IMG/VR virus record: IMGVR_UViG_3300050821_024094
Location: 1 to 64,000 of that record
Source of the DNA: a virus
Direction: 5' to 3' (one strand)
DNA length: 64,000 nt
The notes under the pieces were generated by a model. The model did not search any database. It was not told the DNA's origin and worked only from the letters and a program-made list of their open reading frames with translations. Shown one piece after another: positions 23,863-39,257 of the stretch (positions are counted from its first letter, which is position 1; each line of letters starts with the position of its first letter). The position numbers were made by a program, and so were the translations under genes.

Positions 23863-24849
23863 TTACGAGCCGAGCTTGTGTTTAAAGATGACGGCGCGGA
23901 TCAGCTTGTGATCGTACACCTTCGTCCAGTTGCCGCTGTCCGCGAGCTCCGTGTTCGCCGGAGTGGGGTTCGGCGCGGTGGCACCGACGGGCGTGGCAGG
24001 AATGCCGTTCTGCGGGGTCCACTTCACACCGCGCGTGTGCATGCAGAGCCAGCGACGATGGACGAGCCACTCGCTACCAGCACCGACGAGCGCGCGACGC
24101 TCGATCTCGACCGGGCGACGCGGCGATGCGGTCGCATAACCGATGGCGCCTGGCCCAAAGATGTAGGTCTGGTAGACGCCGCTCACCTTCGGCATGGTGT
24201 CGTCGACCAGGACGAACTTGCCCTGGTAGACCGGGATGTCTTCGCCGCCATCAGACGGCTTGATGAAGTCGATGAGGTCCTGCTTCTTCATCGTCTTGTA
24301 GGTGTCCGAGTGGACAGCCACACCGGCCAGCGCGTCCTGGTGATCACCAAGCACGCCGCAGGCGTCGATGAAGGAGTGCGGATCGAAGTTCGCCGCCGAG
24401 CCCGTGAGGATGGAGATATCGGAAACGTTCTCGGTCACCTTGCCGATCTGGCCGGCAACGGCGCTGAGCAGGATGTGCTGCTCGGCGCGAACCCAGAAGG
24501 CCGCGAAGCGGTTGGCGATCACCGCCATCGGGTCTGCGCCGGTGAGGTCGGCCGAGAGGTCCGACGCGCCGAACGCCTTGGCGCGGCCGAGCTTCACAGC
24601 GACGTCGAGGCCGGAAGTGACATTGTTCACTGTCAGGTCGAGCGTGTCGTTCATGACGTCATCCGACCCGGGCAGGTCGTTGAAGAACGGCATGTTGACG
24701 GTGACGCCGCCCATCTGAGGCATGAGCTCAGCGGTCAGGTCGATGAGGATGCCGCTCTGACGGAAGCGCGACAGTTCCGTGGTCTTGACGAGCACGTAAC
24801 GATCGAACACCTCCGGGATGATTAGGTCGGAGAGGAGGGTCTCAGCCAT
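23863..24849 (-). CDS. Major capsid protein (SPP1 gp13-like coat type)
   Basis: LSDLIIPEVF, QSGI, MPFFNDL, G.DPM..I, VDD.MP, H.RG.KW, NW.KVYD.K. Confidence 0.9.
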   Translation of the reverse strand: MAETLLSDLIIPEVFDRYVLVKTTELSRFRQSGILIDLTAELMPQMGGVTVNMPFFNDLPGSDDVMNDTLDLTVNNVTSGLDVAVKLGRAKAFGASDLSADLTGADPMAVIANRFAAFWVRAEQHILLSAVAGQIGKVTENVSDISILTGSAANFDPHSFIDACGVLGDHQDALAGVAVHSDTYKTMKKQDLIDFIKPSDGGEDIPVYQGKFVLVDDTMPKVSGVYQTYIFGPGAIGYATASPRRPVEIERRALVGAGSEWLVHRRWLCMHTRGVKWTPQNGIPATPVGATAPNPTPANTELADSGNWTKVYDHKLIRAVIFKHKLGS

Positions 24850-24918
24850 GTTCTTGTTCTTCTCTTGAGACATGAGAGGCGCCAGCGGCCCCTCTCAGTG
24901 GCGGGATGGGTGGTCCGA

Positions 24919-25749
24919 TTACGCCACGCCGGCCTGCGCTTTGAGCGCGGCAGCAAGTGTCGGATCGGCGCGCGTGATGCGCATTTGCTCAGTGAGGTTC
25001 TCGGTGGGTTTCATCCAGGGGTTGGCTTTGGTGCCACTTCCCAGATTTCCGTTGCCGCTACCGGACGCGCCTGACCCGGAGTTCCCCGATGCTTCGAAGG
25101 CTCGCCCGAACTTCGGGTCCACCTTGAGCTTCTTGACGAGGTCCGTGATCGTCGAGTTGACGGGCTTGCCGTCCTTGATCGTGATGTCCGGGTTCCCGTT
25201 GGAGTCGAGCACTTGGACGCTGAAATGCCCGTCAGTCTCCACGACCTTGAGGCGTGGCTTGATGACGCCGAGCAGAAGCTCGGGGACGCCCTTCTCTTCG
25301 ATGATCGCCGTCGATGCATGGCTTTCGACCAGAAGTCGGGTGATCTCGCCGGAGAGCTGGCCTTCACGCTTGTCGCGCTTGCCAATTTCGTCGGTGTGCG
25401 ACTTGGTCAACTCCGTGACCTGGGCCTCCACTCGCGCTGCCGCGAGACGGTCGGCTTCGGACGCCGGGTCGATCTTCTTCAGACGTTCCAGATCAGCCAG
25501 TTGGGTCCGCAGCGTCTTGGGTGCTGGGAGACCCTTGTAGCCTTCGAGGGCGGCCTTGGCGCTGTCGAGCTCGCCTTTGGTGGATGCGAATGCGGACTTG
25601 AGACCATCGACGTTTTCGAGGGTCAGTCCGTTCACAGGCTCCACGGCGAGAATGAACTTGCCGGCGTTGTCGCCTTCGGTGACCGGGACGTAGAGAAGCT
25701 TGGTCGCGTCGTCGAGATTGTCGAGGGAATCGACAAGAGCTTTCAGCAT
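24919..25749 (-). CDS. Capsid scaffolding protein
   Basis: Coiled-coil, GSGA linker, NPW and NLTEQ tail; just upstream of capsid. Confidence 0.8.
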   Translation of the reverse strand: MLKALVDSLDNLDDATKLLYVPVTEGDNAGKFILAVEPVNGLTLENVDGLKSAFASTKGELDSAKAALEGYKGLPAPKTLRTQLADLERLKKIDPASEADRLAAARVEAQVTELTKSHTDEIGKRDKREGQLSGEITRLLVESHASTAIIEEKGVPELLLGVIKPRLKVVETDGHFSVQVLDSNGNPDITIKDGKPVNSTITDLVKKLKVDPKFGRAFEASGNSGSGASGSGNGNLGSGTKANPWMKPTENLTEQMRITRADPTLAAALKAQAGVA

Positions 25750-26036
25750 TGCTTGATCCTGGGATTGAGGCGTCGCCTCGGTGACCGGATGCAGTCCGGC
25801 GGCAGGGAGCGCTCGGCTCCTGTGACCGGCATGACGGGCCGGCAGAACGCCGCACGCTTGGGGCTCGCCCTACGTGCAGGCCGTCAGAGACGGGGAAGAA
25901 TGGGCCGATCTCGCTAGGGAGACACGGCGCTTGGTTGAAGAAAGAACAGCGAAAATAGCCGCTATAAAAAAATGCGAATATGCAACTACCACAGGAAGGG
26001 TCCATCCTCGCATGGTTGGTCTACTGCGAGGTCGCC

Positions 26037-26213
26037 ATGACTCCCCACGAACTGCCAAAAGATGATCTCATCGAAATTGAGATCGGTAAGAATCAACGAG
26101 TGCGGATTGTCGGAAAGTTCGCGCTCGTGTCGGCCACAATCATCGCGGTCGCCGCACCCCTCAGTGGGATACTGAAGATCGCGTTCGGCCACATACTAAC
26201 GTTGTTTCGGTGA
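26037..26213 (+). CDS. Small membrane protein
   Basis: RBS GAGG; hydrophobic C-terminal half. Confidence 0.45.
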   Translation: MTPHELPKDDLIEIEIGKNQRVRIVGKFALVSATIIAVAAPLSGILKIAFGHILTLFR

Positions 26214-26236
26214 TCAAGGTGCCGCGCTAACGCCAG

Positions 26237-26935
26237 CTACGCAAAATGTCGATACAGGTAGTCGATGCCGAAGAGGGCGGCGATGATGATGGTGACGAGA
26301 CCGCCGTAGACTAATGAATTCTGAATAGCTTTAAAGATCGCGTAGACGCGCAGCGGATGAAAGGGAACACCGATATATCGCAGAAACCACATTGTTCGAT
26401 GGTTCAGGTACATCAGAATAGACGGCGTAGGGACATCTAGCCTGAAGAAAGGAGAATGAGCTTTAAGCTCTCTCCAAGTCGCATCCGCCCACTCTTCCAA
26501 CTGCATTTTTCTACGGTTTCTTTCCTCTTCGCTCAATCCACGTTCTTCCAGCCTGTGGTACATGAGAGCCATCTGATCATTCGCGTCCACGCCCATCAAA
26601 TACCGTTGGTATTCCCGCTTGCTCAACGAGACTCCGCGCCCGCCTGAAAATACAACCACGCCCAGAACGTCATAGATGAGTGGTGGCAGGGGCGGCAGAT
26701 GCAGCTTCTGCACAAGGACGTGGACGAACTCACGATAGCCCGCGATCCAGTCCGATACGCGATGCCCAAATTCAACCAAGATCGGCCTGTGCGACAGTGG
26801 TACCTGTGCAACGCACCAATCCCAGGCGTCGATAACAAACTGCAACTTCGACAGAATGCTCACGAAACCGTGCAGCGCCCATACCGCAGACGCCAAGCCG
26901 AAAATCCACGCGGCGATCGTGCGCACGTTGGTCAC
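26237..26935 (-). CDS. Membrane protein, tandem paralog 3
   Basis: GTG start overlapping the previous stop; ends ALFGIDYLYRHFA. Confidence 0.8.
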   Translation of the reverse strand: MTNVRTIAAWIFGLASAVWALHGFVSILSKLQFVIDAWDWCVAQVPLSHRPILVEFGHRVSDWIAGYREFVHVLVQKLHLPPLPPLIYDVLGVVVFSGGRGVSLSKREYQRYLMGVDANDQMALMYHRLEERGLSEEERNRRKMQLEEWADATWRELKAHSPFFRLDVPTPSILMYLNHRTMWFLRYIGVPFHPLRVYAIFKAIQNSLVYGGLVTIIIAALFGIDYLYRHFA

Positions 26936-27621
26936 GCGAAATGTCGGTACAGGTAGTCGATCCCGAAAAGGGCGGCGATCACGAGCGCGACGAGGCCGCT
27001 GTAGAACGACGCCGTGATGGCCTGCGCAACGACCCTTGTTAGAGGTCCTAACAAGCTGATCAGTAGGGACGAGCCTGCAATTTTTTGTAAGACCCCAAGC
27101 TGCCATCGTAAAGCGATGCCGCTTGCCCGGCGATACAAGGAATATTTCATCACCGACGAAAACGGAAAGTCCAGCTCACGCATCTTCCTCATTCTATCGG
27201 CCTTAGAATCGGCCTCAGACATTGAGTTTATTATCTCTTCAGCCCTACGTCTGTCAGCAGCGCGAGTTTCGTCGTATGCCTTCATGTACCGCTTTTCGGC
27301 GAGGTTTGTAATCCACCGGCCTCTGGCCATCGAAAAGGCGGCAATGCCAGCCCAGTCATAGATCAACTGTGGCAGCTTCGGCAGATGCAGCATCTGGACC
27401 AGCCCATGCACCAGAGCACGATAGCCAGTCACCAATTGCGATATCAGCTTGCCGATTGTCAGCGCGACCGTCTTCACCGTCAGTGGTGCATGATTCGCGG
27501 ACCAGTCGAGGCTGTCGACAACGAATCCAAGTCGAGAAAGCGTGCTGAAGGTGCCGAAGATTGCCCAGACAAACAGCGCAATGCCGATCACCCAACTGGC
27601 GTACTTGCGGATGCTCGTCAT
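26932..27621 (-). CDS. Membrane protein, tandem paralog 2
   Basis: ATGA overlap; ends ALFGIDYLYRHFA. Confidence 0.8.
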   Translation of the reverse strand: MTSIRKYASWVIGIALFVWAIFGTFSTLSRLGFVVDSLDWSANHAPLTVKTVALTIGKLISQLVTGYRALVHGLVQMLHLPKLPQLIYDWAGIAAFSMARGRWITNLAEKRYMKAYDETRAADRRRAEEIINSMSEADSKADRMRKMRELDFPFSSVMKYSLYRRASGIALRWQLGVLQKIAGSSLLISLLGPLTRVVAQAITASFYSGLVALVIAALFGIDYLYRHFA

Positions 27622-28244
27622 GCGAAGTGCCGATAGAGGAAGTCGATGCCGAAAAGGGCGGCGAGGATGATGGCGACGGTGCCACAGTAAACGAACGAGA
27701 CGATCAATCTTGCGCGATATCGATCTAAATTGGTGTCAAGATGCGAGGTTTTGGAATATAGCCAACGTGATAACTGAAGAAGTAACAATGGAGAAGGGTC
27801 GTCGCGCATTTGCCCACGAGCACTGTACATTTCGGCCTCTTCCTTTGTTATCTCCGAATAGTCGTTCTTAGAAATTGCGGTTTCAATCTTTTGACGCCGT
27901 AATGCCAGCCTCTCGTGTTCTTTCAAAGCATCTCGGCGCTGAAGCCACTCTCCGCGCTTAATCGAAAACACTTCGAGCACGAGCACGTCATAAGCTTCCT
28001 GCGGCAAGCGCGGCAGCCGCAACATCTCGACTAAGCCGTGGACGAACTCGCGGTAGCCTCCGACGATCCCGGACACGTTTTTGCCAACCGCAAGCGCGAC
28101 AGCTCTGATGGAGATCGGAACTTGATCGACTGACCACGTCCAGCCGTCGACGAGGAACTTCAGCTCAGAGAAGATGCTGAAGGCCGACACCGTCGCCCAG
28201 CAGAACAGCACAATGCCGATCACCCAGCCAATAAACTTGAGCAT
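27618..28244 (-). CDS. Membrane protein, tandem paralog 1
   Basis: Start MLKFIGW with RBS; ends ALFGIDFLYRHFA. Confidence 0.8.
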   Translation of the reverse strand: MLKFIGWVIGIVLFCWATVSAFSIFSELKFLVDGWTWSVDQVPISIRAVALAVGKNVSGIVGGYREFVHGLVEMLRLPRLPQEAYDVLVLEVFSIKRGEWLQRRDALKEHERLALRRQKIETAISKNDYSEITKEEAEMYSARGQMRDDPSPLLLLQLSRWLYSKTSHLDTNLDRYRARLIVSFVYCGTVAIILAALFGIDFLYRHFA

Positions 28245-28280
28245 GCGCTTCCCCCACGATACGGTCACCATACCAGGGGC

Positions 28281-28658
28281 ATGAGAAACGCCACAATGAT
28301 CCGGTACAATATTTCGCTACCAGTGGTGTCGGCAGTTCTATTGCTCATAGCGTGCACGACGGCGGCACCAGCATACGAATGCTCGCAGGCCACTTTTCAA
28401 AGGGCTCGGCCAAAAGTGCAGCTATTATTCGGGGCAGGCATCCTACAAAACATGCCGAATCCCGAAGCTAGTCTTAGTGTTCTTGTAGCCGAGAACTATT
28501 GGGCGCGAATGACGTATCCGGAAAAGCAGAGGTTTGCCGACGAATTTGTGTGTGCCATTGCTGGGGCGGGCAAGGGACTCTTAAGTCTGAGTTTCAAATC
28601 CTTGATGAGCGGGAAGACGATCGGGGAATGGTCGGCTGGAACGCTTACCATCCCATAA
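28281..28658 (+). CDS. Exported hypothetical protein (lower-GC moron)
   Basis: Signal-like N-terminus; divergent from the paralog array. Confidence 0.55.
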   Translation: MRNATMIRYNISLPVVSAVLLLIACTTAAPAYECSQATFQRARPKVQLLFGAGILQNMPNPEASLSVLVAENYWARMTYPEKQRFADEFVCAIAGAGKGLLSLSFKSLMSGKTIGEWSAGTLTIP

Positions 28659-28679
28659 GACCGTGCACGGGGAAATACA

Positions 28680-29000
28680 TCAGGTCAGCACCCAGGCAGT
28701 GATGTCTGCGCCGGTTCCAGTCGCGCGCACGGCGCGGATGATCAGCCAATCGATGACGGTGAGGCCGACCGGAACCTTGAGGTCCACATGCACGCTGTCG
28801 TCCTGGCACTCGACGGTGACCGCGCGGATCACCTCGGCTGCCGTGCCAGCGTTGAACACCGCAAGCTTGCCGTAAACCGGCAAGTCGTTGGTGTCGTTCG
28901 GCGTGACCGGCAGAGCATCCCTCGCCGGCGCGATCGCACGATGCGAGGCGCAGGAGAATTTGAGCACGTCGCTGGAAGAGACATACGAGTTCGTGGTCAT
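28680..29000 (-). CDS. GTA head-spike base-like protein (Rcc01079-like)
   Basis: PA.....VTP.D..DLP and VRATGT.A.I motifs, recalled from that family. Confidence 0.55.
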   Translation of the reverse strand: MTTNSYVSSSDVLKFSCASHRAIAPARDALPVTPNDTNDLPVYGKLAVFNAGTAAEVIRAVTVECQDDSVHVDLKVPVGLTVIDWLIIRAVRATGTGADITAWVLT

Positions 29001-30490: not shown

Positions 30491-30564
30491 TGGAGCGGGG
30501 AGCTGGAATTGAACCAGCACGTTCCGGCTGGAGACCAGGTGCTCTACCGTTGAGCTATCCCCGC
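30491..30564 (-). tRNA. tRNA-Gly(TCC)-like gene with atypical anticodon loop
   Basis: 74 nt; acceptor stem GCGGGGA/TCCCCGC, U73, encoded CCA, D-arm GCTC/GAGC, T-arm GCTGG-TTCAATT-CCAGC. Confidence 0.85.
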
Positions 30565-31236: not shown

Positions 31237-32895
31237 TTACGCCGCACCGATCTGGTCTTGCAGACCTTGATTGTCGTCTTTCGCGAGCAGAATTTTCTTG
31301 CCGGTGTTGCCGGTGTCGCCGACTTTCGGATCTTTTGGAGCACCGGGACCACCACCGGCCGCCGCAGTCGCAGCCGCGAGCGCCGCTGCTTGCTTGTTGT
31401 CCTCCTCCAATTGCTTGGCGAGGCGTTGCTCTTCGACCTCGGGATCGAACTGCGGTCCGAGGAAACCACGACGCGCCCACTCATCCCACAGCGTCTCGCG
31501 CGAGATGACACGGCTGTCGTGGGCTTCCATGAGCTCGGTGTTCTCGTTGGTCTCGCGCAGCTCCACACCGAAGTCGGTGTGGATGTAGACCTCGGGCTCG
31601 GCCTGAATGTTGAGCCACATGGCGGTGAAGACGAACAATTCCTCGAGCACGTCCTTTTCGTCGGACGCCCAGGCTTCGGCTGCGGCGTGAGCCTTGGCGG
31701 CATTGACGGCCTCTGCCGTTGCGGTGATGTGCCCGCCACCGCGCACGATCGGCGCCATGCCGAGCTTTGCCATTTGCTCCTCGATCTTGTCGACCTGGGC
31801 TTGCAGCTTCTCGATGGATTGACCGGCAGGCTCGATGAAGGTCCAGCTCGGGATCGACGACGTGAGGCCCGGTTGAGGAGGTGCAAAGCACACGAGGCCC
31901 GGTCCGATTCGAAGCTGCATCGGTTGTCCGGTGGCCGGGTCGATCGGCGGCGAGATGCCGTTGCCCGATAGCATTGGGAAGGCCGCCTGCAGGAGGATGT
32001 GCTTGAGGTTCGAGCTCTGCTGATAGTGCTCGATTTGCAAGTAGGCCAAGTCGGTCATCGGAGAGACGCAGGCGTTCGTCCACCACTCGCGCTCGCCCGG
32101 CTTGAACAAGCGGAACGGGAGTTCTGGCAGCGTGATGAAGCCCCCACCGACGAGCGCCCAGCCGGTGCCACCGACCTCCCAGAGCTGCCAGGTGCGATTG
32201 ACACCATCGTCATCGAGCACGCGCACGCGGCGCACCGGGATCTCTGAAAAGCCAACGCGCTTGACGATGTCCTCGCGCAGACGGACGTGCTTGACGTACT
32301 TCCGCCCTGCCCGCATCTCCGTGTAGAGCGCGATGATGTCCTCTGCCCGATACATGGACCAGTAGGGGCGAGCGCCCAGGCGCCGCTCATCAGCGAGCGT
32401 CGAACCGGGATTGACGTTTGGGTAATCGACGAGCAGCCCGACGACGCCGAAGGCGACGCCCTCCTTGAAGATGTCACGGGCGAACTTGTGCAGCGAGACG
32501 CCATGGCCGTCCACATCCTCCGCGATCTCGCGGATTTGCGGCGAGATGTCGTCACCCTGGAGCGCGACCTCTTTCGAGAACGGCTTCGAGGTGATGCTGT
32601 TGACGGAGTCCTTGAAGTGATTGACGAAGGGCGCGTACTTGTTGCGAGCCGTGTATTCGGTGTCGCTCTCCTCCGTGAACCGCGGAAGATAGAGCTCGCC
32701 GGCCGCACGAATACGACGCGCTCCGCCGAGGATGTCGCGGATCAGACTCCATTCGGGGAGAGCCGCCACATAGGCGAGCGACGGGACCGAGGGATCGCCG
32801 CCCTGTTCGATGAGCGATTGCGCGGGGAGCGGCGTGTCGCTCGTGAGCGGAGACCGGAAAGGGTCCGCCTTCTTCTTGCTGGTTGGTCGTTTCAT
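31237..32895 (-). CDS. Portal protein (DUF4055 type)
   Basis: YLPRF, DVDG.G.SL, LLVDYP, RPY, PM.DLA.L.I.HYQ. Confidence 0.9.
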   Translation of the reverse strand: MKRPTSKKKADPFRSPLTSDTPLPAQSLIEQGGDPSVPSLAYVAALPEWSLIRDILGGARRIRAAGELYLPRFTEESDTEYTARNKYAPFVNHFKDSVNSITSKPFSKEVALQGDDISPQIREIAEDVDGHGVSLHKFARDIFKEGVAFGVVGLLVDYPNVNPGSTLADERRLGARPYWSMYRAEDIIALYTEMRAGRKYVKHVRLREDIVKRVGFSEIPVRRVRVLDDDGVNRTWQLWEVGGTGWALVGGGFITLPELPFRLFKPGEREWWTNACVSPMTDLAYLQIEHYQQSSNLKHILLQAAFPMLSGNGISPPIDPATGQPMQLRIGPGLVCFAPPQPGLTSSIPSWTFIEPAGQSIEKLQAQVDKIEEQMAKLGMAPIVRGGGHITATAEAVNAAKAHAAAEAWASDEKDVLEELFVFTAMWLNIQAEPEVYIHTDFGVELRETNENTELMEAHDSRVISRETLWDEWARRGFLGPQFDPEVEEQRLAKQLEEDNKQAAALAAATAAAGGGPGAPKDPKVGDTGNTGKKILLAKDDNQGLQDQIGAA

Positions 32896-37694: not shown

Positions 37695-39257
37695 TCAATG
37701 TGAGAAGGCGTATCGGCCCTGGAGCGGGCCACTGGCTGTGACGGTGAGCGCACGGAAAGCGCCGGACGCTGCGTCTACCTGGTCATCGTGAGCACCGTTC
37801 GGGAACGACGCGAGCTCGTCGAGGAAAGCCTCATTCCAGGGACCGCGCAGGAGCTTGACGTTGCCGGCCTCGGCTTGGGCGGCGAATGGATCGGCGCGGG
37901 TTCCCTTGTCGCCCGTCTCTGCCTCCGAGGTGACGACGTATCCCGCGAGATTGGAGGCGAGCTGGCGCACCTGGAACTTGCCGGCCTGGCCGGGGTCTTG
38001 CGGGATGCGGATTTTGGTGCCGTAGCCGTCCGAGGTCGCGATGTTCTTCATCGTCGATTCGATAACGCCCGGCGACCAGCGATCGCGTGCGACGTCACAG
38101 ATGTAGAAGATGCCCGTCACGGGATCGCGCCCCATGAGCAGTCCGACGGTGTAGTCCGGGTCCGACTTCACGTCGGTCGAGGACGCCAAGTCCCACGAGC
38201 GCACGCGATGGAACGCGACGGAGGCGGGAGCTGCCCCGACGATCTCGAACCAGGTCCGCTTGAAGGTGCCGCCCTCGCGAGCGGTCGGGCGTTGCTGGAG
38301 CTGACCGGCCGCAGCGTGCGAGCCGAGGCGGGTTGACCACTCCGCCAGAATGTCAGCGGTGAAGCGCTCCTTCCACAGCGGTTCGCCTGGGATGGTGCGA
38401 AGGTCGCACCAAACCTCCTTGATCGGCGACTTCTTCCGCACGACCTTGGTCTGGAACCCGATGGGATGGTCCCGCTCATAGCTCGCCGGCAGGCAAACAA
38501 TGTCCCAGCCCATCTCCTTCGCGAGAATGTGGCCCGTGAGATCGCGCTCGTGCGAGCGCTGCATGATGACGATGAAGACGCCGGTCTTCGGATTGTTGAG
38601 GCGGGTCGGAAGGACCTCGTCCCACACCCGCAGCGTCTCTTCGCGGATGACCTCGCTCTCGATCTCTTTGATGTTGTGGGCGTCGTCGATGACGATGATG
38701 TCAGCGCCGAAGCCGGTGACGCCACCGGAGAACGACAGCGCCATGCGCGAGCCGCCCTGCACCGTGTCGAAGTCGGTGATGCGGTTCGAGTTGGGGTCAA
38801 GCTGGACGCGCTCGCCCCACAGCTTCGCGTACCACTGGCTCTCGATGAGCTGGCGGCACTTCTGCGAGTGCGCGTTCGACAAGCGGCCCGAATAGGAGAT
38901 GTAGGCGAACTTCACCCCGGCGCCGTAATGGCGGAACACCTGCTTGCGATACGAAGGATCGCCCGATCGCCGCTTGAGGTCTTGCAGCCACGTCCAGGCC
39001 GGATAGAACACGTTGGCGCCGATCGACTTCATGTGCCGAGGCGGCAGATTGAGGATCAGTCGTTTGATCTGACCGTCCGCAACCGCTTCGAGGTGATCGC
39101 AGACGGCATCGATGTGCCAGTTGGATTGGAAGTCCGCAGGTTCGACGAACGGCCAGCCGAACTTGACGAAGGTGCCCAAGTCTTGTTCGCAAACCTCCCG
39201 CAGTGATGCCGCGATGTTATCGGGCAGGTTCGCGATGTCTTCGGGACGCATAGGCAT
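37695..39257 (-). CDS. terL: Terminase large subunit
   Basis: NLPPRHMKS (Walker A variant), IVIDDAH, MQR.HE.DL.G, QQRP, WDLA, HDDQVDA. Confidence 0.95.
   Translation of the reverse strand: MPMRPEDIANLPDNIAASLREVCEQDLGTFVKFGWPFVEPADFQSNWHIDAVCDHLEAVADGQIKRLILNLPPRHMKSIGANVFYPAWTWLQDLKRRSGDPSYRKQVFRHYGAGVKFAYISYSGRLSNAHSQKCRQLIESQWYAKLWGERVQLDPNSNRITDFDTVQGGSRMALSFSGGVTGFGADIIVIDDAHNIKEIESEVIREETLRVWDEVLPTRLNNPKTGVFIVIMQRSHERDLTGHILAKEMGWDIVCLPASYERDHPIGFQTKVVRKKSPIKEVWCDLRTIPGEPLWKERFTADILAEWSTRLGSHAAAGQLQQRPTAREGGTFKRTWFEIVGAAPASVAFHRVRSWDLASSTDVKSDPDYTVGLLMGRDPVTGIFYICDVARDRWSPGVIESTMKNIATSDGYGTKIRIPQDPGQAGKFQVRQLASNLAGYVVTSEAETGDKGTRADPFAAQAEAGNVKLLRGPWNEAFLDELASFPNGAHDDQVDAASGAFRALTVTASGPLQGRYAFSH

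Follow-up and report, generated by a model that had tools for sequence, protein, structure and literature searches.

The provirus record IMGVR_UViG_3300050821_024094 of IMG/VR is 74.8 kb long, and we analysed its positions 1 to 64,000 (hereafter the window; all coordinates below are positions in this stretch of 64,000 nucleotides, nt). On the minus strand, between 26237 and 28244, the window carries three consecutive genes that we term A, B and C (Table 1). They encode all-helical inner-membrane proteins of 208-232 residues, which belong to one rare, uncharacterised family; a protein identical to the 232-residue product of C is present in the protein collection as P0018. The start of A is the ATG at 28244, which is preceded by the Shine-Dalgarno-like run GGGGGAAG; a longer open reading frame (ORF) extends to 28271. 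The GTG start of C is backed by homology, and the listed ORF, from an ATG at 27106, would overlap B. The stop of A and the start of B overlap as ATGA, those of B and C as GTGA, so that the array of three overlapping membrane paralogs proposed by the original prediction, which was made by a model from the letters of the DNA without database searches, is borne out. Inspection of the ribosome sites revealed no Shine-Dalgarno sequence upstream of B or C and, given the 4-nt overlaps, translation of these two genes probably proceeds by termination-reinitiation. The same 4-nt ATGA overlap is found in a pair of family genes in the metagenome locus L004.

Aligning the three proteins reveals 55 invariant columns, nearly all of them within residues 1-98 and the last ~23 residues, and every motif listed in the original prediction for a shared N-terminus of ~100 residues and a shared C-terminus is found in the alignment. 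Identity between paralogs is 44-49% over this N-terminal domain (N-domain) and 65-77% over the C-terminal part. The middles, of 82-103 residues, behave as predicted in that they do not align: their local alignment scores are no better than those of shuffled sequences (z of -0.3, 2.2 and 0.9). To call them unrelated, however, was an overstatement, as a near-invariant proline motif is common to the middles, and the order of helices to the models of A and B, in spite of the lack of alignable similarity. The prediction of a lower GC content in the middles also holds, with an overall GC of 0.45-0.50 in each middle versus 0.55-0.63 at the ends, and a GC at third codon positions (GC3) of 0.46, 0.59 and 0.55 in the middles of A, B and C versus 0.71-0.88 at the ends; the GC3 of adjoining phage genes is 0.72-0.85. 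Since GC3 drops too, the dip goes beyond amino-acid composition, and the same tendency towards a middle of low GC3 is seen in 8 of the 9 family genes for which DNA was to hand.

The three genes are old paralogs. The copies are separated by a synonymous divergence (dS) of 1.0-2.1, and silent changes are frequent even among the codons of the conserved C-terminus; we therefore reject a recent gene conversion between the three genes and conclude that no switching or homogenising takes place within this locus. Two known types of programmed variation were considered and rejected. A diversity-generating retroelement is not supported: the 74.8-kb record contains no match to RVT_1, there are no direct repeats apart from the conserved ends, and the middles differ in length. 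A shufflon or invertible cassette is not supported either, as the record has no match to the Phage_integrase family and its copies number only three, each of them complete and directly oriented. The provirus record showed no additional copies, silent ones included. Given a record with neither a reverse transcriptase nor a tyrosine recombinase nor silent copies, we conclude that the array does not switch in a programmed manner.

AlphaFold2 models of A and B (predicted local distance difference test scores, pLDDT, of 77 and 72, respectively) are all-helical and have an identical order of helices. The N-terminal ~100 residues comprise a transmembrane (TM) helix, a short Trp-rich helix, a long second helix with the GYRE motif that pairs with the first as a hairpin (residues 1-81), an LPxLP turn and the beginning of a very long third helix. 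This third helix enters the variable middle, where it is followed by one or two short helices, a proline and a further helix; the C-terminus is a long helix with a second clear hydrophobic segment, the last ~25 residues forming a TM helix that terminates in AALFGIDYLYRHFA. The middle carries 13.1 Lys plus Arg versus 9.6 Asp plus Glu in the 45 members for which charge was counted (net +3.6), and this charge, by the positive-inside rule, suggests that the middle lies on the cytoplasmic side. Invariant or near-invariant charged residues are located close to the membrane at both the N-terminal end (D33, R65, D86) and the C-terminal end (D201, R205), which would be consistent with packing of the two ends against each other. 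Foldseek searches against the PDB and a wide VIA-align search gave nothing beyond generic matches to long helices or hairpins, all of them under the noise level of helical proteins, and the ESM Atlas yielded no usable match.

A profile search of 1.84 billion cluster representatives returned 98 proteins, 55 of them at E<=1e-30; the family thus amounts to ~100 clusters among 15 billion proteins (59 clusters at 90% clustering), and every member found so far derives from a metagenome. No credible match to A, B, C or 49 members was found among the models of Pfam, PHROG, PADLOC and NCBIfam, and the PADLOC protein models gave none for A, B or C even at E<=1. Phage records searched by tblastn and megablast contained no homolog. 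Two different motif scans of IMG/VR and of 185,579 GTDB species genomes, as well as a profile search of 401 sampled Alphaproteobacteria, found no member, which is not proof of absence.

Seven metagenome loci with a family gene could be retrieved. The gene is single in these loci except for the pair in L004, and its surroundings are those of an ordinary chromosome (thymidylate kinase, D-Ala-D-Ala carboxypeptidase, phasin, TctC, GGDEF sensor), with no neighbour genes common to the loci. L010 is a locus with a broken fragment, and in P0011 gene calling has fused the homolog to the tail of a tyrosine recombinase, an integrase fragment that adjoins it. The original prediction had looked to homologs in arrays with hypervariable middles: the middles are indeed hypervariable, but the homologs are mostly single-copy or paired. 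They are not the single-copy housekeeping genes that it had set against its own proposal, for although mostly single-copy they are rare, patchily distributed accessory genes. The one longer fused form, P0065, came from the profile search, and a search for further such forms found none. In this protein of 861 residues the N-domain (residues 1-111) is joined to a serine-hydrolase-like region with a GHSFG motif and to a long TPR-like helical tail; no Pfam domain passes the cut-off (weak TPR_12, E 0.0023), and the hydrolase-like part has no relative among solved structures. The fusion indicates that the N-terminal module can anchor other cargo.

Visualizing the relatedness of the N-domains as a tree, we observed that A, B and C fall in three separate lineages. 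The N-domain of A groups in an 'A-type' clade with P0112 and the L004a group as its neighbours, that of B is sister to P0002 and that of C is sister to P0034 and P0021; the middle of B is weakly related to that of L004b and P0017 (z 8.6). Because the pair in L004 repeats the gene order of the window, an A-type gene followed by a gene starting MTSIRKY, the arrangement itself is old.

The N-terminal ~100 and last ~25 residues are under purifying selection. The N-domain dN/dS is ~0.15-0.35, and among A-type genes dN is 0.11-0.25 versus a dS of 0.37-1.16. For 51 full-length members we compared N-domain identity with the similarity of the middles, or cores, measured as local alignment scores against shuffles. 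Related cores were found in none of the 207 pairs whose N-domains are 70-80% identical and in only 12 of the 38 pairs at 80-89%, such that over the whole range of 70-89% the cores have a z of ~0 and differing lengths in 233 of 245 pairs. Core length across the family ranges from 24 to 136 residues, and there are many mutually unalignable types. The N-domain tree contains several supported sister pairs with unrelated cores (B/P0002, C/P0034, A/P0112, L008/P0016, P0010/P0019), and a sixth, P0004/P0006, is weakly supported (81/71). Where a core type has been inherited, on the other hand, it is as conserved as the N-domain: in type T1 (P0008, P0011, P0105, P0106, P0107) the cores are 84-96% identical versus 80-89% for the N-domains, and in P0045/P0125 the values are 37% (z 22) versus 45%. 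In L004b/P0012 they are 63% versus 81%. These comparisons indicate that cores are not intrinsically much faster than the N-domain.

The closest pair at the DNA level, L008/L009, has an N-domain dS of 0.37 and is 81% identical over nt 1-330, with 83-90% identity in most 30-nt windows up to nt 300. Just after codon 100, identity falls to 39% for ~210 nt and then returns to 68-80% in the last ~85 nt; a neutral segment at this dS would be expected to be still ~70% identical. Given that inherited types are conserved while close relatives differ, and that the border in L008/L009 is sharp, gradual drift fails as an explanation and the middle has been replaced episodically. Homologous recombination in the conserved flanks, which are 75-85% identical in DNA, would be the natural mechanism of replacement. 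The exchange at conserved flanks that the original prediction envisaged is thus in keeping with the sharp breakpoint of L008/L009, but A, B and C, whose dS is given above, bear no sign of a recent exchange. A motif, [RH][FY]P[LI], is present in 33 of the 51 cores; the cores are highly diverged forms of a single ancestral segment rather than DNA of foreign origin.

The array is part of a block between a 106-residue head-module gene (28680-29000) and the scaffold gene, in which GC is 0.45-0.58 versus ~0.62 in the flanks. The baseplate genes of the window, like the head genes listed in Table 1, are on the minus strand.

Table 1. Positions of the array, the surrounding block and selected phage genes in the window
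Feature	Positions	Strand	Remarks
Insertion (moron) block	25821-28681		2.86 kb; contains small TM ORF, C, B, A and lipoprotein ORF
Paralog A	27618-28244	minus	208 residues; N-domain 27945-28244, variable middle 27696-27944, C-terminal TM helix 27618-27695
Paralog B	26932-27621	minus	229 residues; N-domain 27313-27621, variable middle 27010-27312, C-terminal TM helix 26932-27009
Paralog C	26237-26935	minus	232 residues, GTG start; N-domain 26627-26935, variable middle 26315-26626, C-terminal TM helix 26237-26314
Candidate weak promoter-like element TTGTGG-N18-TATGGT	28267-28296	minus	22 nt upstream of the start of A, inside the divergent lipoprotein ORF
Putative lipoprotein ORF	28281-28658	plus	125 residues, divergent; signal peptide and lipobox-like LIAC; no Pfam or PHROG match
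Small membrane ORF	25980-26213	plus	77 residues (58 from an internal ATG), convergent; C-terminal hydrophobic helix; no family match
Weak terminator-like hairpins (two)	26064-26084 and 25946-25965	minus	downstream of C, left edge of block
Large terminase	37695-39257	minus
Portal	31237-32895	minus
tRNA-Gly	30491-30564	minus	
Head scaffold	24919-25749	minus
Major capsid	23863-24873	minus

In the nearest related phage, L052, whose major capsid protein is 73% identical, a homolog of the 106-residue gene lies ~270 nt before the scaffold gene. DNA similarity to L052 ends at window position 28682 and restarts at 25820; since L052 lacks the segment between these positions, that segment is an insertion. 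It is a moron in the sense of DNA that is present here and absent from the same site in a close relative. We also compared 60 related phage loci, ~30 of which have both portal and scaffold: the distance between these two genes is 5.5 kb in the window versus 1.3-2.3 kb in most of the related phages (0.7-4.0 kb overall). In L052 the portal-scaffold gap carries other cargo, namely two ORFs, one with a LAGLIDADG-like motif and one for a trypsin-like serine protease (L052 4868-5443 and 6940-7740; judged from translation only). Given this different cargo, the site appears to be an insertion hot spot.

The block is also contained in soil runs. Two soil DNA runs contain contigs that match the window on one side only, either rightward of 25954 or leftward of 25985, and are unrelated to it beyond that point. 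Alternative junctions are therefore present in the population where the block ends on the left, next to the hairpin at 25946-25965. One soil contig matches the start of B and the C-terminal codons of A up to 27676 and then diverges within the conserved C-terminal helix of A; this contig could represent either a variant array or a remnant.

With regard to expression, an element of the form (C/T)TGnnn-N17/18-TAnnnT is located 22-26 nt before the start in 5 of 8 upstream regions of family genes (the window, L004, L005, L006 and L010). This suggests that the genes may be driven by a promoter of their own, as one would expect of a moron. In L004, L005, L006 and L010 a conserved stretch with TTCCACA(C/A)GC is located ~35-40 nt upstream of the promoter-like element; it is not obvious in the window, and in the chromosomal homologs it may be the site of a regulator. 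In one run of a soil metatranscriptome, contigs covered only 28369-28638, in the lipoprotein gene, and 25000-25088, in the scaffold gene. The former is an identical 270-nt contig, which could come from either strand or from carried-over DNA, and weakly hints that the lipoprotein gene is transcribed in situ.

Rarity with a patchy distribution, insertion into a prophage together with envelope genes, conserved membrane parts, replaced middles and stacked, coupled paralogs together make up the signature of a conflict gene. From these observations we hypothesize that the array is a set of inner-membrane proteins expressed by the prophage, in which the variable middle selects the incoming phage, or the phage product, that is to be excluded or sensed; we put the probability of this reading at roughly 40%. 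The two conserved ends would pack as a single membrane-embedded bundle, with D33, R65, D86, D201 and R205 linking the N- and C-terminal ends, and the helical middle, rich in Lys and Arg, would be looped out on the cytoplasmic face. A, B and C would be made in coupled amounts through reinitiation at ATGA and GTGA, perhaps as a hetero-oligomer, and the array would be expressed in the lysogen from its own weak promoter. The middle would be the specificity-determining part of a membrane-based conflict function, most likely the exclusion of, or an abortive response to, superinfecting phages, with a different target for each paralog.

Several observations weigh against this hypothesis. The candidate promoter TTGTGG-N18-TATGGT is weak and was not reported by the consensus promoter scan of the window. 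The only RNA contigs from the block map to the lipoprotein gene, with none on A, B or C, although at this low depth that is not evidence of silence. The array proteins have no PADLOC or PHROGs match, and most homologs sit outside phages. No core was found on clearly different flanks among the 51 members, T1 is monophyletic in the N-domain tree, and core type follows that tree for T1, T3 and T4; exchange between family members is accordingly deduced from absent similarity and not seen directly. A common core motif and helix order could also arise by very fast divergence in place, with insertions and deletions. These last points, together with a drop in GC3 that fits relaxed selection, are what one would expect if the middle were a weakly constrained helical spacer that diverged in place, with neither exchange nor specificity, in a generic membrane tether or stress protein picked up by the phage. 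The source of P0012 named that protein ElaB/YqjD-like (DUF883), yet none of 49 members matches this family at E<=0.01 in Pfam or NCBIfam. A spacer of this kind is also difficult to reconcile with inherited cores that are as conserved as the N-domain, in T1 and in P0045/P0125, or with L008/L009 cores that fall, at a sharp border, far below the identity expected at their dS, and we regard it as unlikely. Of the original proposal of a constant membrane scaffold with swappable cytoplasmic cassettes, the evolutionary part is largely borne out and now applies across the family: the constant ends and the discrete, replaceable types of middle stand. The direct signature of exchange, one type of middle on clearly different flanks, was not found, and a cytoplasmic placement is suggested by charge.

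Tandem old paralogs, discrete polymorphic types, a patchy accessory distribution and a membrane location would suit an orphan immunity array, in which each middle neutralises another variant of the polymorphic membrane-targeting toxins of competing bacteria. We find no toxin-like gene beside the family gene in the seven metagenome loci or the window, and no conserved neighbours; moreover, known immunity proteins against pore-forming toxins owe their specificity to the membrane helices, whereas in the array these helices are constant. This explanation seems to us quite improbable. Still less probable is a late phage function, with the genes co-transcribed with those of the head and acting, for instance, as a holin/antiholin set, in the timing of lysis or to remodel the membrane for assembly. 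The genes do encode small membrane proteins, lie on the same strand as the late genes inside the head module and have no strong promoter in the scan; against this, the block is missing in the nearest relative, portal and scaffold are much closer together in ~30 related phages, no endolysin adjoins, the block includes two genes on the opposite strand, and most homologs reside in chromosomes outside phages and have a promoter-like element of their own. The remaining probability falls to explanations of some other kind.

We stress that what has been established is an uncharacterised family of unusual mosaic design in a familiar setting, the prophage moron. Going further than a role in exclusion or sensing, one might propose a new class of membrane-embedded conflict proteins, in which the constant helical bundle acts as the effector or as an anchor, recognition falls to a cytoplasmic module that recombination can replace, coupled arrays widen the specificity, and the N-terminal module can be reused to anchor enzymes, as in P0065; we consider this generalization doubtful. 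If the middle does set specificity, the family would show in compact, natural form how recognition can be modular in a membrane protein. It would also be a new kind of exclusion or defence gene carried by prophages of soil bacteria, organisms little studied from this angle. The family is rare, known only from metagenomes and without a cultured host, while its constant ends should make chimeras easy to build.

Among known systems, P22 SieA and other moron-encoded exclusion factors (PMC3594210) would be functional analogues of the array and not relatives. SieA is a prophage-encoded inner-membrane superinfection-exclusion protein with a short conserved cytoplasmic motif containing R-Y-P (PMC10883804). 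Homology was considered and rejected: aligning a 49-member profile with SieA by hhalign gave a probability of 0.3% and an E of 0.18 over 13 columns, and there is no PHROG match. Like SieA, the array proteins are small multi-helix inner-membrane proteins encoded by an insertion amid virion genes, one that is separately transcribed in the case of SieA and may be so here, and both occur in several sequence types, those of SieA being <30% identical (PMC10883804). SieA, however, is a single gene of 162-164 residues with three predicted TM helices, and constant ends around a replaced middle have not been reported for it. HK97 gp15 and the Ltp-type lipoproteins are encoded by insertions in late operons and are membrane or lipoprotein products expressed by the prophage (PMC3594210, PMC3952083). 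The array resembles these factors in its late-region insertion, in a block that includes a putative lipoprotein gene, and differs from them in that it has no PHROG homology and in that a coupled array of three genes and a mosaic architecture are undescribed for those factors. The textbook example of a polymorphic protein with conserved termini and a hypervariable centre is flagellin. The array proteins are small helical membrane proteins whose middle is probably cytoplasmic and not surface-exposed, and they are unrelated to flagellin; the analogy is one of architecture only. As in flagellin, the conserved ends would pack together, and the centre varies in sequence and length, forms discrete types and would change by recombination in its flanks.

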